From IMG/VR virus record IMGVR_UViG_2909979649_000004: a stretch of DNA of 64,000 nt; one strand, written 5' to 3'. Below, piece after piece: positions 495 through 61,292 of this stretch (positions within the stretch are counted from its first letter, which is position 1; each line of letters opens with the position of its first letter). Source of the DNA: a virus (taxonomy: Duplodnaviria; Caudoviricetes). Under the pieces are notes generated by a model. It made no database searches, had not been told where the DNA came from, and was given only the letters and a program-made list of their open reading frames with translations. Both the position numbers and the translations under genes were made by a program.

Positions 495-523
495 GTGACA
501 TCAAAGACCTACTCAGATATAGT
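495..523 (+). promoter_or_regulatory. sigma70-like promoter for immunity-region sRNA
   Basis: GTGACA-17 bp-TATAGT; same geometry at equivalent positions in elements 2 and 3. Confidence 0.65.
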
Positions 524-529
524 TATTGC

Positions 530-642
530 TCAACCAAGGGATGTGCAGAGCCCAATAGTCGCGAGGCTACTCCTTATACCTCTCCCATCTCCTTTGTTGT
601 TTCGGGTTTAGCCGGACTTCCCTTGGGAGGTTCCGGCTTTTT
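530..642 (+). ncRNA. Putative phage sRNA with anti-SD tracts, ending in an intrinsic terminator
   Basis: Promoter upstream; CTCCTTATAC and TCTCCTTT tracts; GCCGGAC...TCCGGC hairpin followed by T5. Confidence 0.55.
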
Positions 643-753
643 ATTACTATGAGTTACAAGATACACAAAGATTACTAAGTACGTCAATAGTTACGATAAA
701 GTTTTCTTTTGATTACTTTCTACTTCTTTTGAAAGAGATGGTACGCTTACTAT

Positions 754-1736: not shown

Positions 1737-2651
1737 ATGGCATCAATAAAGGAAGCAACTGTTTATAGGCTTAAGGTCCACTCAGATATGGTGGTCGAAA
1801 AAATAATGGGTGGATTACAACAATATGCATTTCAGCCTTGCGGTAAAACCCAAGAATTAAGCCATGGGTTTACACCGGTCGTAGACGATAGCTTTGTTTT
1901 AATGGGCGATCACTTAGTTTTATTCCGTTATAAAATCGAAGAAAAAATATTGCCTAAAGCGGTGATTGAACACCATGCCCAAAGACGCATGGTAGAAGCC
2001 GAAGAAAAAAACGGTAAACCCTTATCAAGACAAGAAAAAGACCAAATAAAAGATGCTGTCCGTGTTGAATTACTCCCGCAAGCATTTAGCCTTTATAAAA
2101 CCATTGATGCCTATATTGATACCCAAAACGGTTGGTTAGTGGTGGGTAGCTGCAATACTACAGCGCTGGATTATGTCTTAGGGGCTATCAGACAAGTAGT
2201 CAGTGGTTTTTCCAGTGAACTAATGGTGACAAAACAAGAACCCAGTTTGATCATGACCGCCTGGATATACCAGGAAGCCTTAGACTTTTCTGAATTTGAG
2301 CTAGGCGACTGCTTTAAAATCTCCAATGGTGAAGGTTCTATTACCTGTCGGAAAGAAGATTTACGCGATCAGGAAATTGTTGATTTATGTGGTACTCGCC
2401 AGGTTAAGCAATTAACCCTTGAAAGTGTGCATTACACGTTTGATGTTACCGAAAACATGCAAATCAAAAGACTTAAAATTGATGACGCTTACACCGATTC
2501 TTTTATAAATAATGAGGAAGAAGACAAGCTTCATTATCTTCGGGTTAATGCGTTTGTCACTCAGCAAACCATCAGTGAAATTATTAACACCTTAATTAAA
2601 GCGTTTGGTGGATTGGTTGAGGAAAGATTGCCAGAAGAGCAAGCGGCATGA
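1737..2651 (+). CDS. rdgC: Recombination-associated protein RdgC (phage copy)
   Basis: FQPCG..ELSHGF, EEKILPKAVI, ELLPQAFS, FGG motifs; 304 aa. Confidence 0.8.
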   Translation: MASIKEATVYRLKVHSDMVVEKIMGGLQQYAFQPCGKTQELSHGFTPVVDDSFVLMGDHLVLFRYKIEEKILPKAVIEHHAQRRMVEAEEKNGKPLSRQEKDQIKDAVRVELLPQAFSLYKTIDAYIDTQNGWLVVGSCNTTALDYVLGAIRQVVSGFSSELMVTKQEPSLIMTAWIYQEALDFSEFELGDCFKISNGEGSITCRKEDLRDQEIVDLCGTRQVKQLTLESVHYTFDVTENMQIKRLKIDDAYTDSFINNEEEDKLHYLRVNAFVTQQTISEIINTLIKAFGGLVEERLPEEQAA

Positions 2652-2857
2652 AACCCATGGCCACCCGATTACCCAAAACTGAACTAAAAGCCAACCAAGC
2701 ATTAAGAAGGAGAAAAACTGAAGCCGAAATTATGTGGGAGAAAATTTCCAAGGAGTACCACGAATTATTAAAGATTAACAACAGTCTGAGAGTACGATTA
2801 CGTTATCAATTAGATAAAGCCAAACATCGATTATTAAGAGAACCTGCCGGGTTCTAA
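2648..2857 (+). CDS. Phage hypothetical protein
   Basis: Homologous to 58678..58884. Confidence 0.7.
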   Translation: MKPMATRLPKTELKANQALRRRKTEAEIMWEKISKEYHELLKINNSLRVRLRYQLDKAKHRLLREPAGF

Positions 2858-5940: not shown

Positions 5941-7562
5941 AACTCCGACCTTATCAGCAGGAAGCGATTCAGGCACTGATTGAATACTTTCATCGTGCCA
6001 CTGGGAATCCGTTAATCTGTATTTCCACTGGTGGCGGTAAGTCGGTGGTGATAGCCGCCTGGTGTCAGTTGGTATTAAACCAATTTCCTAACCAACGAAT
6101 CTTAATACTCAGCCATGTAAAAGAAATCCTGGAGCAGAATTACAGCAAATTAAAAACCCTGGCCCCTGATGTGGATATGGGGATTTATTCGGCTAGCTTA
6201 AAACGCAAAGACAAAGATGCCAGTGTCTTATTTGCCGGTATCCAATCCGTGTATTCCAAAGCGTTTGACTTAGGTCCATTCAATTTAATTATTGTAGATG
6301 AGTGCCACTTAATTAACGCCGATAAAGATACCACTATGTACAGTCAGTTTTTTACCGATGCGAAAAAGATGAATCCCAATATTAAAGTGATTGGGTTTTC
6401 AGCCACACCGTATCGGATGAAATCAGGCTTATTAACTCATGGGGATAATGCTTTATTCCATGAGATTGTTTACGAAACCGATATTCAGCAATTAATTGAT
6501 GATGGCTATTTATCGCCCTTAGTCACCAAAGGTGGCAGGCAGAAAATAGACCTGACTGGCGTACGGACTCAAAATGGCGATTATGCCACCAAGGATATGG
6601 AAAAGGCGGTTAATAAAGATGATTTAACTGATAAAGCCTTGGCTGAAATTATGGAGTTAGGTGCAGACCGAAAAAGCTGGTTAATCTTTGGGGTATCGGT
6701 AAAACACTGTTTGGAAATTGAAGAGAAATTAAAAAAGCAAGGTGTCTCCGTGGGGATCGTCCATGGTAAGACACCTAATAAGTTAAGGGATAGAATTATT
6801 ACTTTGTTCAAACAAGGTAGTATACGTTGTCTAATTTCGCAAGGTGTTTTAACGACGGGATTCGATGCGCCTAGAACGGATTTAATTGCGTTATTACGTT
6901 CGACTAAATCCGCTGGGCTGTATGTGCAGATATTAGGGCGTGGATTACGGATATCACCCGAAACCGGCAAGGCTAATTGTTTAGTGCTGGATTATGGCGG
7001 CAATGTTGAACGCCATGGGCCGATTGATCAAATCAAAGTGAGAAATGCCGGCAAGAAAAAAGAACCGGGTGAAATGCCTATTAAGGAATGCCCCAAATGC
7101 CAGTTATTGATTCCTTGCTTTGAAAAAGAATGCCCAGATTGCGGGTATATTTTTCCCGCACAAGCCCCCCATAAAGCCACGGCCAGTAATAAAGCGGTTT
7201 TGTCTGCTATGCAACAGGCTGAATGGTATCCCGTGGAAGCGGTGTTTTATCAGCTGCATAGTAAGGCGTTTTCGAATAACTCAGTCAAAGTCACTTATCA
7301 ATGTGGCACTGAATTTTTTGATGAGTGGGTTTGTTTTGAGCACACCGGCTTTCCAAAACACCGGGCATTAACCTGGTGGGTGCAACGGGTCGGTTATCAA
7401 CCGCCATGCCCGAATGATTGTGATACGGCATTGGCCTATTTAAATAATAACAAGATCAAAACCCCATCCGCTATTCAGGTTAAACCGGAAGGCAAATACA
7501 AAAAAATAATTAATTACGAGTTTCTACCCGAGACAATAAAGGAAATGGCTTATGGAAATTAA
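5937..7562 (+). CDS. SF2 DEAD/DEAH helicase with Zn ribbon (RadD-like)
   Basis: LRPYQ, TGGGKS, DECH, SATP, TGFD, Q..GRGLR, CPKC..CPDC. Confidence 0.9.
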   Translation: MKLRPYQQEAIQALIEYFHRATGNPLICISTGGGKSVVIAAWCQLVLNQFPNQRILILSHVKEILEQNYSKLKTLAPDVDMGIYSASLKRKDKDASVLFAGIQSVYSKAFDLGPFNLIIVDECHLINADKDTTMYSQFFTDAKKMNPNIKVIGFSATPYRMKSGLLTHGDNALFHEIVYETDIQQLIDDGYLSPLVTKGGRQKIDLTGVRTQNGDYATKDMEKAVNKDDLTDKALAEIMELGADRKSWLIFGVSVKHCLEIEEKLKKQGVSVGIVHGKTPNKLRDRIITLFKQGSIRCLISQGVLTTGFDAPRTDLIALLRSTKSAGLYVQILGRGLRISPETGKANCLVLDYGGNVERHGPIDQIKVRNAGKKKEPGEMPIKECPKCQLLIPCFEKECPDCGYIFPAQAPHKATASNKAVLSAMQQAEWYPVEAVFYQLHSKAFSNNSVKVTYQCGTEFFDEWVCFEHTGFPKHRALTWWVQRVGYQPPCPNDCDTALAYLNNNKIKTPSAIQVKPEGKYKKIINYEFLPETIKEMAYGN

Positions 7563-7785
7563 CCAGATGTATTTATCAAGAGAAAACAGAAAGGTTGTTG
7601 AGAGAATGAGGGAGTATATTAACTATTATAAGCTAGCCAAAGCAGATGGACGAAAGCCTGAAAGAATACAGTTAGAAATTAAACAATATGAAAGGCTTAG
7701 GAAAAATTTACTAACAAAGACTAACGGTAAATGTAAACCACCTTACACCCTTAACAATATCCCAGTTGTCCCGGTTCAACATTAA
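7552..7785 (+). CDS. Phage hypothetical protein (MEIN...CKPPYT family)
   Basis: Homologs at 18014 and 57862. Confidence 0.75.
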   Translation: MEINQMYLSRENRKVVERMREYINYYKLAKADGRKPERIQLEIKQYERLRKNLLTKTNGKCKPPYTLNNIPVVPVQH

Positions 7786-17673: not shown

Positions 17674-18003
17674 TTAACTCATTACCCCAATATACTGAGG
17701 TTTTCTCCGTTTGGTTTTTATTCCGGCTTCTAGTTCATCACGTTCTATCTTGATTGAGAGTGGGGCTTGAATAAATAAATCAACTTGTGACAGTGAATCT
17801 CTAATACCAGCTATATGAGGCATTGCCGTGAGGGATATAGCGTCATTAATATTAAGCTTTTTGCCAAAGTCGATTTGTTTGATTTGTAACTTCCCTTGGT
17901 GAAAAATACTCAGCTCAGCAAAACCGTATCGCCTACCACGCAATACGATACGGTGTTCACCAACTCTGACCGATTCACCAACACGCCTAGTGATGGTTAA
18001 CAT
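17674..18003 (-). CDS. CsrA-like protein, internally duplicated
   Basis: MLTITRRVGESVRVG...IQAPLSIKIERDEL. Confidence 0.7.
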   Translation of the reverse strand: MLTITRRVGESVRVGEHRIVLRGRRYGFAELSIFHQGKLQIKQIDFGKKLNINDAISLTAMPHIAGIRDSLSQVDLFIQAPLSIKIERDELEAGIKTKRRKPQYIGVMS

Positions 18004-18013
18004 GCTTTTGTCC

Positions 18014-18232
18014 TTAATTTATTAAGGGGATAAGTCGCACGCCATTAATGGTATAAGGCGGCTTACAGTTGAACTTAATTAAATTCATTTTAAAGGCTTC
18101 CAACTGTTCTTTGGTAATATGCAACTGCATTGGTTTTTTATTTTTTGCTAGAGTGTAATACTCTATGTATTGCTTAGCTTTCTCATATAACCTGAGATTC
18201 TTTTTGGTTAGCTCCATTCGATTGATTTCCAT
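18014..18232 (-). CDS. Phage hypothetical protein
   Basis: Near-identical to 57862..58077. Confidence 0.75.
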   Translation of the reverse strand: MEINRMELTKKNLRLYEKAKQYIEYYTLAKNKKPMQLHITKEQLEAFKMNLIKFNCKPPYTINGVRLIPLIN

Positions 18233-19347: not shown

Positions 19348-19390
19348 CTCCTTTCTGTAGGCAAAAAAATACCGTGGCTCAATATTGAGC
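19348..19390 (-). promoter_or_regulatory. Conserved leader / predicted sRNA target
   Basis: GCTCAATATTGAGC CACGGTATTTTTTTGCCTA CAGAAAGGAG. Confidence 0.6.
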
Positions 19391-19433: not shown

Positions 19434-19730
19434 TTATTTAACTTCTAAGTTTTTACCAGTCTCCCAAAGTAGTTTGGCACTATTGGTTAAGGGTTTAACA
19501 AACATGGCTGTCATACCATCATCATGGTCCCAAAATTTCAGTGCAAAATTAAACCCTGCAATTTCTCCTGGGTTCCAATCATTAATTAATTTGTCTCCGT
19601 CCTCTTCTATGTCATAGTCATAGTTATTAACAAAGATCGATTCAAAGCCAAGTTCTTTGGCTAACTCTTCAAAATTAACCATATCGTTTGAGGCTATTTG
19701 AACGAATAAAGGATTTTCCATGGGTGTCAT
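19434..19730 (-). CDS. Phage hypothetical protein
   Basis: AAGGAG RBS; operon position. Confidence 0.7.
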   Translation of the reverse strand: MTPMENPLFVQIASNDMVNFEELAKELGFESIFVNNYDYDIEEDGDKLINDWNPGEIAGFNFALKFWDHDDGMTAMFVKPLTNSAKLLWETGKNLEVK

Positions 19731-19748: not shown

Positions 19749-20147
19749 TTACACGCTTAACGTGCTGAACGTTTCTTGTCGTCTAACAGACCGTTGTGCT
19801 ATCCGCACGGGCCTGGGTTTATTAGGGTCATCTTTAACAACTCGGGGTAATTCAGGTAATGCGAAAAAACTTAATACAATCAGTAATGGACTCACAATTT
19901 TTAGCCGGATCAGCTCAGCCACTAAATGTGCACGGTTATGGGTGTTTAACTTGTAGTGTACATTTTTAATTCGATTACTGACTGAGCTGGGCTCAACCCC
20001 TTGCTCTCTGGCAATGACTTTATCTGTCTTACCCGACAGTAGCCCTATGCAATATTTAATCTCACGCGGGGCTAGGTATGGGTTATTTAGATTGGCTTGC
20101 CAGTGGCCATCGGTAATACAGTTAGTTGCAGGTATTGAGCTGTCCAT
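19749..20147 (-). CDS. Phage LuxR-type HTH regulator
   Basis: Homolog of 1336..1725. Confidence 0.8.
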   Translation of the reverse strand: MDSSIPATNCITDGHWQANLNNPYLAPREIKYCIGLLSGKTDKVIAREQGVEPSSVSNRIKNVHYKLNTHNRAHLVAELIRLKIVSPLLIVLSFFALPELPRVVKDDPNKPRPVRIAQRSVRRQETFSTLSV

Positions 20148-20293: not shown

Positions 20294-20983
20294 TTATCTA
20301 TTGATTATATATTCTGCTAAAGCATCAAGGATTTTTAAGTCTGCAGGTGTAAGCTTGTTTTTAGCTACGAGGTCTGTGTAAGTGTTTATGATCCTCATTT
20401 GTTCTTGCCAAAAAGCAGGATCAGGAGATATAGAGTTCGAGGAAATTTTATCGGTATGTTCTTGAGTTGCAGACAAGCTTTCATTTCCATCAAGTAACCA
20501 AAGGTGGTTTACTTTTAAAACTTCACTTAGCTTCTGTAGCTTATTCCGTTTAGGATAAGCCCTTGTCTCAGGATCTTTGGACTCCCATTTACCAACTGCA
20601 GCTAAAGATACTTCGCAGTATTTAGCTATTTCACCCTGTGTTAGGTTCAACTCTTTTCGGCGCTTACGAAGTTTCGACCAAAGGCTACTCATCTGACGCT
20701 CATTTACTTTGGCTTTAGCTTTTTGGTATTCATCCTCCTCAAGAATAGATACAGCTGAGAATATTGAATCCTCATCATCTGAGTAAAACCAATTAGTATC
20801 AACTTGTAATATTTCACTTAGTTTTTGTATTTTGTCTTGTCTGGGAAAGGCTTGTCTTTCAGGGGCTTGTGACTCCCATTGAGAAACTGAAGTCACAGAA
20901 ACCTCGCAATAGTCTGCGACTTCTTTTTGAGTTAAATCTAGCTCTCTGCGTCGCGCTCTAAGTTTTTTCCAGATTTCACTCAT
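20294..20983 (-). CDS. Phage repressor with two tandem XRE HTH domains, no peptidase domain
   Basis: Internal repeat MSEIWKKLRARRRELDLTQ / MSSLWSKLRKRRKELNLTQ. Confidence 0.85.
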   Translation of the reverse strand: MSEIWKKLRARRRELDLTQKEVADYCEVSVTSVSQWESQAPERQAFPRQDKIQKLSEILQVDTNWFYSDDEDSIFSAVSILEEDEYQKAKAKVNERQMSSLWSKLRKRRKELNLTQGEIAKYCEVSLAAVGKWESKDPETRAYPKRNKLQKLSEVLKVNHLWLLDGNESLSATQEHTDKISSNSISPDPAFWQEQMRIINTYTDLVAKNKLTPADLKILDALAEYIINR

Positions 20984-21036
20984 GCAAAAATTCTACTTGA
21001 AGTTTACAAAATTCGCTATTACTATGACAATACAAT

Positions 21037-21197
21037 AAAAAAACCGGCACCCTACAATAGAGTACCGGTTAACATGTTAAACCCTTATCAGCACAAACAC
21101 CAGTGCCTGTGGCACCTTTACGCCTAAATTCAGCGGTATATGTGAAAAGGAGACAAAAGCACATACCCTGATAGGTCGATTGTGTTTGTGCTGAATA
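21037..21197 (-). ncRNA. Putative structured antisense-type sRNA
   Basis: Promoter GTGACG-17-TAAAGT (21232-21204); 13 bp closing stem UCAGCACAAACAC/GUGUUUGUGCUGA; hairpin loop GUCUCCUUUU; terminator ACCGG...CCGG-U7. Confidence 0.68.
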
Positions 21198-21246
21198 GGT
21201 AAAACTTTATCTCAAGTTTTAGTAAGCGTCACTTAACTTAATTCTA

Positions 21247-21262
21247 CTGTTAGTTTATACAG
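21247..21262. promoter_or_regulatory. LexA (SOS) box upstream of the replication operon
   Basis: CTGTTAGTTTATACAG = CTGT-N8-ACAG. Confidence 0.65.
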
Positions 21263-21510
21263 TCACCAACCTAGCAAGGAGCATCCATGATGGTACCTCA
21301 ATGTAAGACTTAGCTAACCCTCTAATACTCTCGTTGTATTTCGAGGGTGTTTTATCAACCAATGACTTATTAATTACTGACTGAATTCAGTGAGCTAAGG
21401 ATTTTTTATGTCTGAAAAAAATAAGGCAGGGTTTCTTGCAGGCAATAAAAAAGCTGCTAACCCCCGCAAAGAGAAAAGCAGCTTTCCTAACCACATTTGG
21501 AGTATTTATT

Positions 21511-22425
21511 ATGGATGATGTTTATGATAACTGCAATGGCTATGTACGACTCAATAACCAGTTATTGGAAGCTATTTGTCAGCTGGATATTTCTGGCCGC
21601 CAGTTTCGTATTTTGATGGCGGTGATTAGAAAAACAATTGGCTATAACATCGAGGTTGACTGGATTTCTGCCAGCCAATTAGCTGATTTAATGGCTTATG
21701 ATGGTGCCACCACCCACCTACATGCCGATTTACGAATACTCAAAGAGCGCAAAATCGTAATCACCAGAGGTCGTAAAATTGGCATCAATAAAAGTTTGGC
21801 TAACTGGTGTTTTAGCAAAATCGAAACTAACCAAAAACCGTCACTAAACAAACCGAAATCGGTCACTCATAAAGAAACCAAAAACGGTCAGGTTAGTGAC
21901 CGAAATCCGTCAGTAAACAAACCGAATTCCGTCACTCCCAAACAAACCGAAAACGGTCAGTGTAGTGACCGAAATCGGTCAGAAAAAGTGACTGAAAACG
22001 GTCACCACAAAAGACAAAAAGACACTAAACCAAAAAACACTATTACCCCCTTTAATCCCCCCTTGGAGGAAACCAACCCACAACCGAGTAAAAAATCCAA
22101 ACGTCGTACACCAGCCAAACGAACCACCACTGCCCCTGAACATTTTCCGATGACACCGGAATTAATTCGGTGGGCCAGTGAGAATTTTATTCGGGTCGAT
22201 TTGATTATCGAAACTGAAAAATTTCTGGATCACCACCGGGCCAAAGGTTCCACGTTCACTTGCTGGGCGTCAGCCTGGCGAAACTGGATGCGTAATGCCC
22301 AACGCTTTGCGGCTGAAAAAGCCATGCCACCCGTTCCAACGACCGGCCCTGTTAAACCCAATGGAATCAAACCTGGGGGGATGGATTGGGATGATACCAG
22401 CTGGCGCCATGACTTAGGTCTGTGA
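21511..22425 (+). CDS. Lambda O-like replication initiator
   Basis: GYVRLNNQLLEA...RQFRIL.AVIRKT.GY...DWIS..QLA; internal iterons; GGAG RBS before ATG 21511. Confidence 0.85.
   Translation: MDDVYDNCNGYVRLNNQLLEAICQLDISGRQFRILMAVIRKTIGYNIEVDWISASQLADLMAYDGATTHLHADLRILKERKIVITRGRKIGINKSLANWCFSKIETNQKPSLNKPKSVTHKETKNGQVSDRNPSVNKPNSVTPKQTENGQCSDRNRSEKVTENGHHKRQKDTKPKNTITPFNPPLEETNPQPSKKSKRRTPAKRTTTAPEHFPMTPELIRWASENFIRVDLIIETEKFLDHHRAKGSTFTCWASAWRNWMRNAQRFAAEKAMPPVPTTGPVKPNGIKPGGMDWDDTSWRHDLGL
21829..22005 (+). repeat. Replication origin iterons (8 copies, consensus ACCGAAAWCGGTCA)
   Basis: Eight imperfect repeats counted within the O-like gene. Confidence 0.85.
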
Positions 22426-57844: not shown

Positions 57845-57861
57845 GGTTATCGGCGTCTTCC

Positions 57862-58077
57862 TTAGTTTAAGGGTATAAGCCGCACGCCATTAATGGTATA
57901 CGGCGGCTTGCAATTGTATTTAATTAAGTTCGTTTTAAAGGCTTCCAACTGCTCTTTAGTAATATGTAATTGTCTTGGTTTTCTATTTTTAGCGAGGGTG
58001 TAATACTCAATATATTGTTTGGCTTTCTCGTATATCTTTAAATTCTTTTTAGTTAACTCCATTCGATTGATTTCCAT
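57862..58077 (-). CDS. Phage hypothetical protein
   Basis: Near-identical to 18014..18232. Confidence 0.75.
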   Translation of the reverse strand: MEINRMELTKKNLKIYEKAKQYIEYYTLAKNRKPRQLHITKEQLEAFKTNLIKYNCKPPYTINGVRLIPLN

Positions 58078-58607: not shown

Positions 58608-58651
58608 TCTCCTTTCTTCAGGCAATAAGGTGCCGTGGCTCAAAATTGAGC
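58608..58651 (-). promoter_or_regulatory. Conserved leader / predicted sRNA target
   Basis: GCTCAATTTTGAGC CACGGCACCTTATTGCC TGAAGAAAGGAGA. Confidence 0.6.
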
Positions 58652-58884: not shown

Positions 58885-59387
58885 GCGGCTACCGTATTTG
58901 CTAGCGTCATGGATGTTTTCCCTCTACCAACCATTTGAATAAATAATTGTAGAAATAACTTATTTACATCGATATCTTGGTTGTTAACAACTAAGCAGCC
59001 TCGCTCCGTATCAATATAAACCTCAACGACTGTAGTTATTTTGGGTGCCCGAGGAATCAGCCCGGTTCTAATTTCTTTCCATACACATTCAATTTGCTGT
59101 TTAGTCAAACGTTCTCCCGTAAGGTCTTTATGGTCTTCAACAGCTTCAATGACACGCTGTCTTAAAACCGTAGGTGATAATACCTTTTTCTCTAATTTAA
59201 CTTTGAATACGGCTAATTTTTTTCGTGTCTCCAGATAACTACCTTTTTTAACCGGTACAAAACCATAACTTAATTCTTGATATTTACTACAAGGGGTAAA
59301 CTCCGCATCTCTAACCCCACCTAATAACCGCTCAACAACATAATCAGCATTAGCATTTAGCTGATATACATTTGCGTTTTCATACAT
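58881..59387 (-). CDS. Short RdgC-like protein (N-terminal half only)
   Basis: FTPC...ELSYGF.P, EKKVL, LIPRA; 168 aa versus 304 aa for the homolog. Confidence 0.7.
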   Translation of the reverse strand: MYENANVYQLNANADYVVERLLGGVRDAEFTPCSKYQELSYGFVPVKKGSYLETRKKLAVFKVKLEKKVLSPTVLRQRVIEAVEDHKDLTGERLTKQQIECVWKEIRTGLIPRAPKITTVVEVYIDTERGCLVVNNQDIDVNKLFLQLFIQMVGRGKTSMTLANTVAA

Positions 59388-59797
59388 AGCTCGTCTCCTT
59401 TTGAGTTATCTAATGGCAAATACTCCAGCCGTCTTCCCGTCCGTTGTACTATGCGGACTTGCCTGGGTTTATCAGGGTTATCATTCATCACCATCGGCAC
59501 ACTATTAACGAGAAATGCAGCTAATAACATCATCACCACTGGCGAAACATTAAGGGTGACGATCTTCAGCCGTATTAACTCGGCCACTAAATGCGCTCGA
59601 TTAGCAGTTTTAAGCTTGTAATGTACGTTTTTTATTCTGCTGCTCACTGAGTTGGGTTCTACACCCTGCTCACGAGCAATGACTTTATCAGTCTTGCCGG
59701 ATAGTAAACCTAAGCAGTATTCAGTCTCACGTGGGGCTAAATATGGGTTGTCCAAGTGAGCTTGCCAGTGTCCATCTGTAGTTATTGTGCTGTCCAT
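59357..59797 (-). CDS. Phage LuxR-type HTH regulator
   Basis: Homolog of 1336 and 19749. Confidence 0.8.
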   Translation of the reverse strand: MDSTITTDGHWQAHLDNPYLAPRETEYCLGLLSGKTDKVIAREQGVEPNSVSSRIKNVHYKLKTANRAHLVAELIRLKIVTLNVSPVVMMLLAAFLVNSVPMVMNDNPDKPRQVRIVQRTGRRLEYLPLDNSKGDELCMKTQMYIS

Positions 59798-60633: not shown

Positions 60634-60725
60634 TCTTGCATATAAAAATTTTAATGAAAAATAGTAACCAAAATCGTTGCCTGTATTGACAACAAAGTAT
60701 TCAGTTAATAATATTCTAGACATAT

Positions 60726-60884
60726 AAAAAAAGCCGGACCTCCTTCACAGGAAGCCCGGCCTCATAATAAACCCTTATCAACACTAACACTAGTGCTTGA
60801 GAGGCACCCTTACGCCAAAGTTTGGGGGTGAGTGTTAAAGGAGACGGGAACACCCGGCTCTCGTCGTTCTAGCGCTCATGTTGT
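60726..60884 (-). ncRNA. Putative structured antisense-type sRNA (homolog of 21037-21197)
   Basis: Promoter ATGACA-17-TATAGT (60919-60891); closing stem with G-U pairs only on this strand; loop GUCUCCUUU; GCCGG...CCGGC-U terminator. Confidence 0.68.
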
Positions 60885-61292
60885 GTAAAAACTATACCGA
60901 GTTTCTGTTTAGCTGTCATTGAAACTAACAAGTATGTCTACTTATACAGTATCCAATATAAAGGAGAGCTGATATGGAAGTAGTAAAACCACGATGCATT
61001 AATCCAAAGTCCCAGTCTGGGTAACTTAACCGTTATCAATTATTGGGTTTAACGCTCAATAAACTTAATTAAAACCTAATTTAGTGGCTAGCAAATCAAT
61101 TGTTTTTGCTGGCAGGGTCTTTTTACGCGCTGATTTTCTTAGCTGTAGATTGGCGGGGATAAATTTCAGGCATAAAAAAACTGCTTTACCCGTCAAAGCG
61201 AAGCAGTTTTTTTAACAACAAAAGGATGTAGATATTATGCAGAAAACTGCCGAAAAAATCAACACCAATGCAGTAATTCAGGAGGGGTGTTT

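Follow-up and report, generated by a model that had tools for sequence, protein, structure and literature searches.

The DNA analyzed here (the window; 64,000 nt) comes from a host genome of 6.69 Mb with ~40% G+C (G000). Element 2 of the window is a prophage in which structural genes of the P2 type are found together with replication genes of the lambda O/P type. At its control region, a short gene on the minus strand lies between the repressor gene and the rightward (lytic) promoter, and a gene of the same kind is present in element 3. The features of the two regions are as follows.

20294..20983, minus strand: repressor gene of element 2; Pfam finds two HTH_3 domains and no S24 peptidase domain
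21035..21070, minus strand: intrinsic terminator of the element 2 RNA, a 13-bp stem (21070-21042) plus seven U
21073..21090, minus strand: single-stranded 3′ tail UGAUAAGGGUUUAACAUG, the most conserved stretch, with GGGUUUA common to four types
21126-21111, minus strand: segment UAGGCGUAAAGGUGCC, the second pairing segment of the original prediction; GGUGCC is the 5′ arm of predicted hairpin P3
21154-21146, minus strand: loop GUCUCCUUU of the element 2 RNA, an anti-Shine-Dalgarno mimic
about 21197 to 21037, minus strand: element 2 RNA (type B), ~160 nt; covariance model score, 146 bits
21232-21227 and 21209-21204, minus strand: element 2 RNA promoter, −35 GTGACG, 17-nt spacer, and −10 TAAAGT, read from the sequence
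21247-21262: LexA box CTGTTAGTTTATACAG of element 2, covering the −10 of the rightward (lytic) promoter, which is back-to-back with the RNA promoter
60727..60886, minus strand: element 3 RNA (type A); covariance model score, 167.5 bits
60763-60730, minus strand: terminator of the element 3 RNA, a 15-bp stem
60891..60919, minus strand: element 3 RNA promoter, ATGACA-17-TATAGT (10/12)
60934..60949: LexA-like box CTGTATAAGTAGACAT of element 3, with one mismatch

The element 2 RNA consists of a closing stem (P1), an anti-Shine-Dalgarno (anti-SD) hairpin (P2), hairpin P3, the 3′ tail, and the terminator. Its promoter aligns with the ATGACA-17-TATAGT promoter of element 3 and of nine other copies, and the repressor gene follows the terminator after 54 nt (element 2) or about 95 nt (element 3). 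The original prediction of a discrete gene just upstream of the repressor gene was borne out, in that a promoter, a multibranch RNA of ~160 nt, and a terminator could all be read in both elements, and loop GUCUCCUUU and segment UAGGCGUAAAGGUGCC are located where it had placed them. As in the Hfq class of small RNAs, an AU-rich single strand precedes an intrinsic terminator with a U-tail, and this tail is conserved in all types of the RNA.

The fold energies, compared with those of shuffled sequences, gave z = −9.0 for element 2 and z = −3.6 for element 3. Although the alignment of 13 copies was fitted to the covariance model, which favors structure, the margin over the controls was nevertheless large: paired cells amounted to 86.9%, versus 36 to 44% when the partners were slid, changes on both sides were found in 19 of 37 pairs, versus 10 or fewer in the slid controls, and no shuffle matched the observed values. 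An independent run with MAFFT and RNAalifold returned the same helices. At three positions of the closing stem the commonest pair was G-U, and thus the RNA strand is the minus strand. The pair counts on the 13 copies and the G-U pairs of the closing stem support both the covariation and the strand that had been proposed from two copies. On this comparative evidence the ~160-nt structured, strand-specific RNA gene is real.

BLAST and covariance model R1 both detected copies of the RNA outside the genome of the window. The model gave 13 copies in four of the six genomes of the family that contains Zooshikella (five in the genome of the window, three in G002, two in G001, and three in G004), and one more, L363, came from a public assembly (contig of 29 kb). 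No copy was detected with the covariance model in 147 other genomes of the order, blastn against a phage collection gave no match to the RNA, and nothing in the 64-kb window reached the gathering score of an Rfam model. The comparison with C4 that the original prediction had recommended gave no C4 match up to E = 10 in 20950-21450. A specific DNA pattern was absent from metagenome contigs and in IMG/VR was found on contigs of one isolate genome only, and two loose DNA patterns gave only chance matches in genome contigs and IMG/VR. Relatives of the repressor protein were Zooshikella ganghwensis by NCBI naming and were located on contigs of G004 (same family, other genus), which makes the genus of the window a sister of Zooshikella; there were none in IMG/VR. 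By these searches, the RNA is a previously uncatalogued family, with model matches confined to one marine bacterial family.

The copies fall into four types. Type A comprises the element 3 RNA and five others; type B comprises the element 2 RNA, three Zooshikella copies, and L363; type C is represented by three copies that score 29 to 49 bits with model R1; and type D is a shorter RNA found in element 1 (530-645, plus strand) and three more elements. Common to all types are a hairpin loop with CUCCUUU and a single-stranded tail, UGUUGAU-NN-GGGUUUA, beside the terminator. Of the two segments that had been described as conserved, the CUCCUUU loop therefore held up in all types, whereas GGCGUAARGGUGCC is not a general feature and is restricted to types A and B. 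The sole exception to the presence of a CUCC-bearing loop is a type A copy in the genome of the window (C1:4452895-4453041; L189 2396-2542), from which the anti-SD loop has been removed by a clean 13-nt deletion. The same copy has a G-to-A change in the second segment, and its leader and neighboring genes look intact. This copy may be decaying or retuned.

The arrangement of the switch is constant. In all 13 loci of types A, B, and C, a LexA-like box precedes the RNA start at −60 to −66, and an ORF for an HTH repressor starts 50 to 100 nt past the RNA terminator. On the plus strand of element 2 there is no ORF of at least 40 aa between the LexA-box promoter and replication gene O, only one ORF of 8 codons and one of 36 codons, and hence no cro. 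The description of the RNA as standing in place of cro was thus right about the missing gene and wrong about the position, because the RNA is on the repressor strand beyond the lytic promoter, where lambda has its PRM transcript. The LexA-gated rightward transcript opens with a strong Shine-Dalgarno (SD) sequence (AAGGAG), followed by a tiny ORF of 7 to 16 codons (21272-21309, plus strand; about 60962-61025, plus strand; and about 2625-2660, minus strand, in L331). The 36-codon ORF of element 2 (21408-21518) is Lys rich and overlaps the start of gene O. The genome of the window has seven elements with this switch layout, five with RNAs of types A to C and two with type D, and five elements in the sibling genome G002 have the same layout. 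The presence of seven switch-bearing elements in one genome raises the question of cross-immunity.

The best explanation, to which we assign a probability of about 0.45, is that the RNA is a stand-alone antisense RNA of the lysis-lysogeny switch and the founding member of a new RNA family. The RNA would be transcribed leftward from a near-consensus sigma-70 promoter that is back-to-back with the LexA-gated lytic promoter, and transcription would end at the strong terminator just short of the repressor gene. Because its promoter is free of a LexA box, the RNA is probably made in the lysogen. The multibranch body would display the anti-SD loop (CUCCUUU), with the AU-rich tail (UGAU..GGGUUUA) left single stranded near the terminator, and the RNA would base-pair with the ribosome-binding regions of the phage's own leftward mRNAs. 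Translation of these mRNAs would be kept off in this way without silencing the repressor gene, which heads the same gene array and would stay on. The gene, its strand, fold, and fixed position are shown by the data, as are the two modules that type D has fused into a complement of a ribosome site; we infer from the sequence that the RNA is expressed in the lysogen and represses translation, and the same holds for any target in elements 2 and 3. The type A copy that lacks the anti-SD loop in an apparently intact neighborhood counts against this explanation. A wider proposal, in which host LexA gates the lytic promoter of a cro-less switch and a modular RNA (loop plus tail, reshuffled among siblings and fused in type D) adds a phage-specific layer, with RNA immunity or cross-talk among the seven co-resident elements, is speculative, and we consider it unlikely.

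An antisense role is credible because the type D RNA carries a 23-nt complement to a ribosome site. The features of the type D pair in element 1 are as follows.

495-500 and 518-523, plus strand: promoter of the type D RNA, GTGACA-17-TATAGT
530..645, plus strand: element 1 RNA (type D), ~115 nt; a weak model match (13 bits), with tail homology to type C
585-607, plus strand: antisense segment CCAUCUCCUUUGUUGUUUCGGGU of the type D RNA
about 610-642, plus strand: terminator of the type D RNA
7526-7548, plus strand: type D target ACCCGAGACAATAAAGGAAATGG / ACCCGAGACAAUAAAGGAGAUGG, covering the SD of a 77-aa ORF (7552-7785) just before a csrA-like gene

The ribosome site that is complementary to the antisense segment is 7 kb away in the leftward operon of the same element. 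In three of the four elements with type D, all 23 positions of the duplex are paired (two as G-U), and element 1 has one A-C mismatch; differences between the elements in this pair are confined to transitions compatible with G-U. The four elements, from two genomes, each have one RNA gene and one target, and no extra copy of the pair was found in either carrier genome (6.7 to 6.9 Mb), nor any copy in two other genomes searched; a reversed control gave no match. The pairing stretch of type D is the type C loop joined to the type C tail at CUUU, with the sequence between two CUUU deleted. That the 23-nt stretch fuses both conserved modules is the strongest indication that the RNA pairs through its loop and tail. 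Two further ribosome sites, at rdgC (1737) and at a 192-aa ORF (4124), have 10-nt matches (CUCCUUAUAC) to the element 1 RNA.

Complements of the type A to C RNAs do not exceed 10 to 13 nt, whether sought in the element or genome-wide. The best recurrent one, of 10 nt or less, is at the rdgC ribosome site, which is also where type A has its longest perfect complement.

59391..59400 (approximate), minus strand: rdgC-like ribosome site AAAGGAGACG of element 3, complementary to the element 3 RNA loop over 10 nt without a mismatch

Three other type A elements share this rdgC match (four in all), a different but overlapping 10-nt match, GCAAAAGGAG, is present at rdgC in the type C element L334, and the match is weaker in L332, L331, and G001:C27. 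Element 2 has no rdgC; its 10-nt match covers the start codon of the csrA-like gene. Short matches to the anti-SD loop carry little weight because such loops match any strong SD, and no single orthologous target was recurrently top ranked across the elements. The leader ORFs (19345 and 58601), rdgC (59387), and the csrA-like gene (18003) are no more than candidate targets in elements 2 and 3. Three further searches were unproductive: the element 2 tail has a perfect 13-nt complement at about 19489-19501 that L363 lacks, long complements of the type A or C tail were found genome-wide only in the RNA genes themselves, and no adjacent two-part site for tail and loop was recurrent.

The original prediction had named a specific target for the RNA, an early-gene leader on the same strand as the RNA gene.

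19348..19390, minus strand: conserved leader of element 2, two small hairpins and then the SD of a 258-aa ORF
58608..58651, minus strand: conserved leader of element 3
2885-2933: conserved leader of element 1

In this model, pairing of two segments (GGCGUAARGGUGCC and the anti-SD loop) blocks the gene behind the leader, in the manner of P1 c4 or P4 CI. The leaders are real and conserved, with hairpins GCUCAA..UUGAGC and GGCA..UGCC, an A-rich stretch, and then the SD, and unrelated ORFs downstream. The complementarity is also real: the pairing counts were confirmed from the sequence (15/16 with four G-U and 12/14 with two G-U), and two complementary segments in matching order are present at the leader in elements 2 and 3. 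No site within 8 kb on either strand suits the segment better than the leader in either element (−17.4 versus −16.5 and −20.9 versus −18.8 kcal/mol); on the mRNA strand the leader is also the best combined site, and the leader ORFs ranked first among 39 start regions in an accessibility-corrected scan. Leader variation opposite the segment is limited to C/U and hence remains compatible with G.

However, several results argue against the leader as the specific target. By our own calculation, a 12/14 match with G-U allowed is expected about 1.5 times by chance in ~110 × ~45 positions, and both ungapped and local-alignment scores of RNA versus leader fell inside the range of shuffles. There was no cognate preference, in that each RNA paired equally well or better with noncognate leaders; for the element 2 RNA, its own leader was a poorer partner than those of elements 3 and 1. 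The SD half of the pairing is generic, as the loop matches any AAAGGAG. In the other half, GGUGCC belongs to an internal stem: a P3 pair that is U-A in element 2 is A-U in L363, the U-to-A change being compensated on the other arm (GGCACU to GGCUCU), with an A-A intermediate in L009, while the leader base that the model had paired with the changed U is the same in L363. The pairing decays to 12/16 in L363, the closest relative for which the full context was available, where the SD is weak (AAGGA) and the leader gene takes 9th place out of 10; its place is 7th in L188 and outside the seven listed in L190. Furthermore, the leader is kept beside RNAs that have no such segment, of type C in L331 and of type D in element 1 and L333. 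The ORFs behind the leader differ between elements and gave no Ant, KilA, or Bro match and no antirepressor or other regulator domain; the 258-aa ORF has no Pfam family, and a 164-aa leader ORF has only a subthreshold match to HEPN_Apea. Two-segment pairing with these leaders, being noncognate, decaying in L363, chance-like in score, and dependent on an internally paired segment, was therefore not upheld, and we regard it as improbable. The more general claim of an RNA-based control layer is plausible, and well supported for type D. Co-resident RNAs could also act on all leaders.

The leader itself has several other features. Hairpin 2 (GGYA..UGYY) at nine loci and hairpin 1 of G001:C27 vary by transitions only, with G-U kept on the mRNA strand, which argues that the leader probably acts as RNA; it could instead be a DNA site for the GerE/LuxR-type protein. 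Because the ORFs behind it are unrelated between elements, the leader appears to mark the start of a variable cargo slot. The possibility that the RNA is an inverted copy of the leader region was discarded, as local alignment was no better than with shuffles, and a sigma-54 promoter in the leader was discarded because the spacing is GG-N9-GC, one base short of GG-N10-GC, in every copy.

Another way to read the switch places the antisense partner on the opposite strand of the RNA gene itself, where elements 2 and 3 each have a promoter-like site in the interval that separates terminator and repressor gene.

21003..21031, plus strand: candidate antisense promoter of element 2, TTTACA-17-GACAAT, pointing rightward through the RNA gene
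60686..60714, plus strand: candidate antisense promoter of element 3, TTGACA-17-TAATAT (10/12), pointing through the RNA gene

With face-to-face promoters, the RNA would act in cis, as a perfect complement of the first ~170 nt of a rightward lytic transcript, and would silence this transcript by pairing, in addition to transcriptional interference. At a looser score (at least 8/12), a similar site is found 37 to 59 nt past the terminator in 12 of 14 elements even though the spacers have otherwise diverged, whereas candidate promoters on the sense strand are scattered. In type C the −35 is within a perfect palindrome, ATGACATAATGTCAT, that could be an operator; initiation by kissing loops would suit the conserved hairpin loops; and a convergent pR/pL switch is typical of P2/186-type phages, and the structural genes of element 2 are P2-like. 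However, the candidate promoters are only matches to a consensus of a kind that AT-rich spacers often provide (1.2 to 1.6 per 500 nt in shuffles), and none reaches the threshold in L363. The LexA-box promoter, located beyond the RNA gene, would escape such control, and the complement in trans of type D would be left unexplained. We consider this arrangement possible but somewhat unlikely.

The position of the RNA promoter, back-to-back with the lytic promoter, on the repressor strand, and 50 to 100 nt upstream of the repressor gene, is also that of a maintenance promoter at the site of lambda PRM, so that the RNA might be the 5′ leader or attenuator of the repressor mRNA, with read-through metered and the free RNA a by-product. 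As this possibility would suggest, element 3 and most of the others show no convincing separate promoter for the repressor gene, although element 2 has one (TTGTCA-18-TAAACT). Yet the terminators are very strong (stems of 13 to 15 bp and 6 to 8 U), no conserved alternative antiterminator pairing was found, and there was no Rfam cis-regulatory match at the RNA that would identify a riboswitch or peptide leader. A small ORF (AAGGG-N7-AUG) translated into the terminator, which might provide coupling, was rejected because L012 and types C and D have no such AUG and the encoded peptides are not conserved. The clear trans target of type D is also difficult to reconcile with an attenuator, and this explanation seems very unlikely. 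It is most doubtful that the RNA is a protein decoy whose UAAGGG or AAGGA repeats (P3 region, tail, and terminator loops) titrate host CsrA or the elongated CsrA-like protein encoded by each element, even though such a gene was identified in elements 1, 2, and 3 and in L363 and each type A RNA has two UAAGGG motifs. The conserved motifs carry GGG and not the core GGA that CsrA requires, GGA occurs only in some terminator loops, and the type C tail reads UUCGGG. The number of motifs is far below that of RNAs of the CsrB/RsmZ type, and the anti-SD loop would have no role.

The stand-alone antisense RNA can be compared with several known systems. The CI RNA of P4 and the CA RNA of N15 are same-strand immunity RNAs that pair, like c4, with their own operon. 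In P1 and P7, the c4 immunity RNA is located upstream of, and on the same strand as, its target, and short segments exposed in loops pair with the ribosome-binding region (PMC12197685). The prophage RNA matches the C4 model (RF01695) in neither sequence nor structure. It has its own promoter and terminator and is situated at the switch between repressor and lytic promoter, whereas RNAs of the c4 class are cut out of an operon leader and c4 is in a separate immI locus. There is no antirepressor gene downstream of the prophage RNA, and type D pairs through one continuous 23-nt stretch; for types A to C a two-segment target is only hypothetical. The sar RNA of P22 and the OOP RNA of lambda are short terminator-ended RNAs that are made from a constitutive promoter in the control region and tune a lysis-lysogeny gene by pairing (PMC12197685). 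The prophage RNA is likewise a short, terminator-ended RNA within a control region, but sar and OOP overlap their target genes, and here an overlapping rightward transcript is suggested only by promoter-like sites.

The coliphages 186 and P2 have a face-to-face pR/pL (Pe/Pc) switch. The prophage resembles them in having a repressor gene, a rightward promoter-like site, and a leftward promoter facing it, together with structural genes of the P2 type. It differs in the promoter spacing (~200 bp, versus 35 to 62 bp), in a leftward transcript that stops before the repressor gene, and in the extra, LexA-gated rightward promoter. In CTXphi and GIL01, the lytic promoter is under the direct control of host LexA, and the repressor of the phage is without a self-cleavage domain. 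Both properties recur here, but no small RNA gene is known to accompany the LexA box of CTXphi or GIL01.

To our knowledge, only a few enterobacterial models (c4, CI, sar, and OOP) have so far revealed regulatory RNAs that act in phage immunity. The family described here is a structurally supported new RNA family from a marine gammaproteobacterial lineage, and the switch that it accompanies is unusual in combining a LexA box, a noncleavable HTH repressor, and the absence of cro. With four natural variants, seven copies in one genome, and one variant with an unambiguous 23-nt target, it offers a test bed for the acquisition of targets by phage RNAs and for RNA cross-regulation between co-resident prophages. 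It also gives reason for caution, since anti-SD loops yield target predictions that are attractive yet nonspecific.

Other observations concern the genes around the switch. The gene after the repressor gene (19749-20147 and 59357-59797, both on the minus strand) encodes an HTH protein of the GerE/LuxR type that matches a sigma-factor PHROG (E = 4.5e-22). Within this GerE-like gene of element 2 there is a second exact CTGT-N8-ACAG match, CTGTCTTACCCGACAG (20024-20039); this LexA-type match may be due to chance, with three such matches in the window in total versus 0.7 expected. A conserved structured leader precedes the csrA-like or 133-aa gene (17990-18075, minus strand; 57845-57920, minus strand; and about 5010-5095 in L331). 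It has a 7-bp stem, AAGCCGC/GCGGCUU, followed by an anti-SD-like CCUUA(A) that is able to pair with the gene's own SD, UAAGG, and it looks like an SD-sequestering hairpin. The UAAGGG motifs of the RNA are complementary to the CCCUUA arm of this leader.
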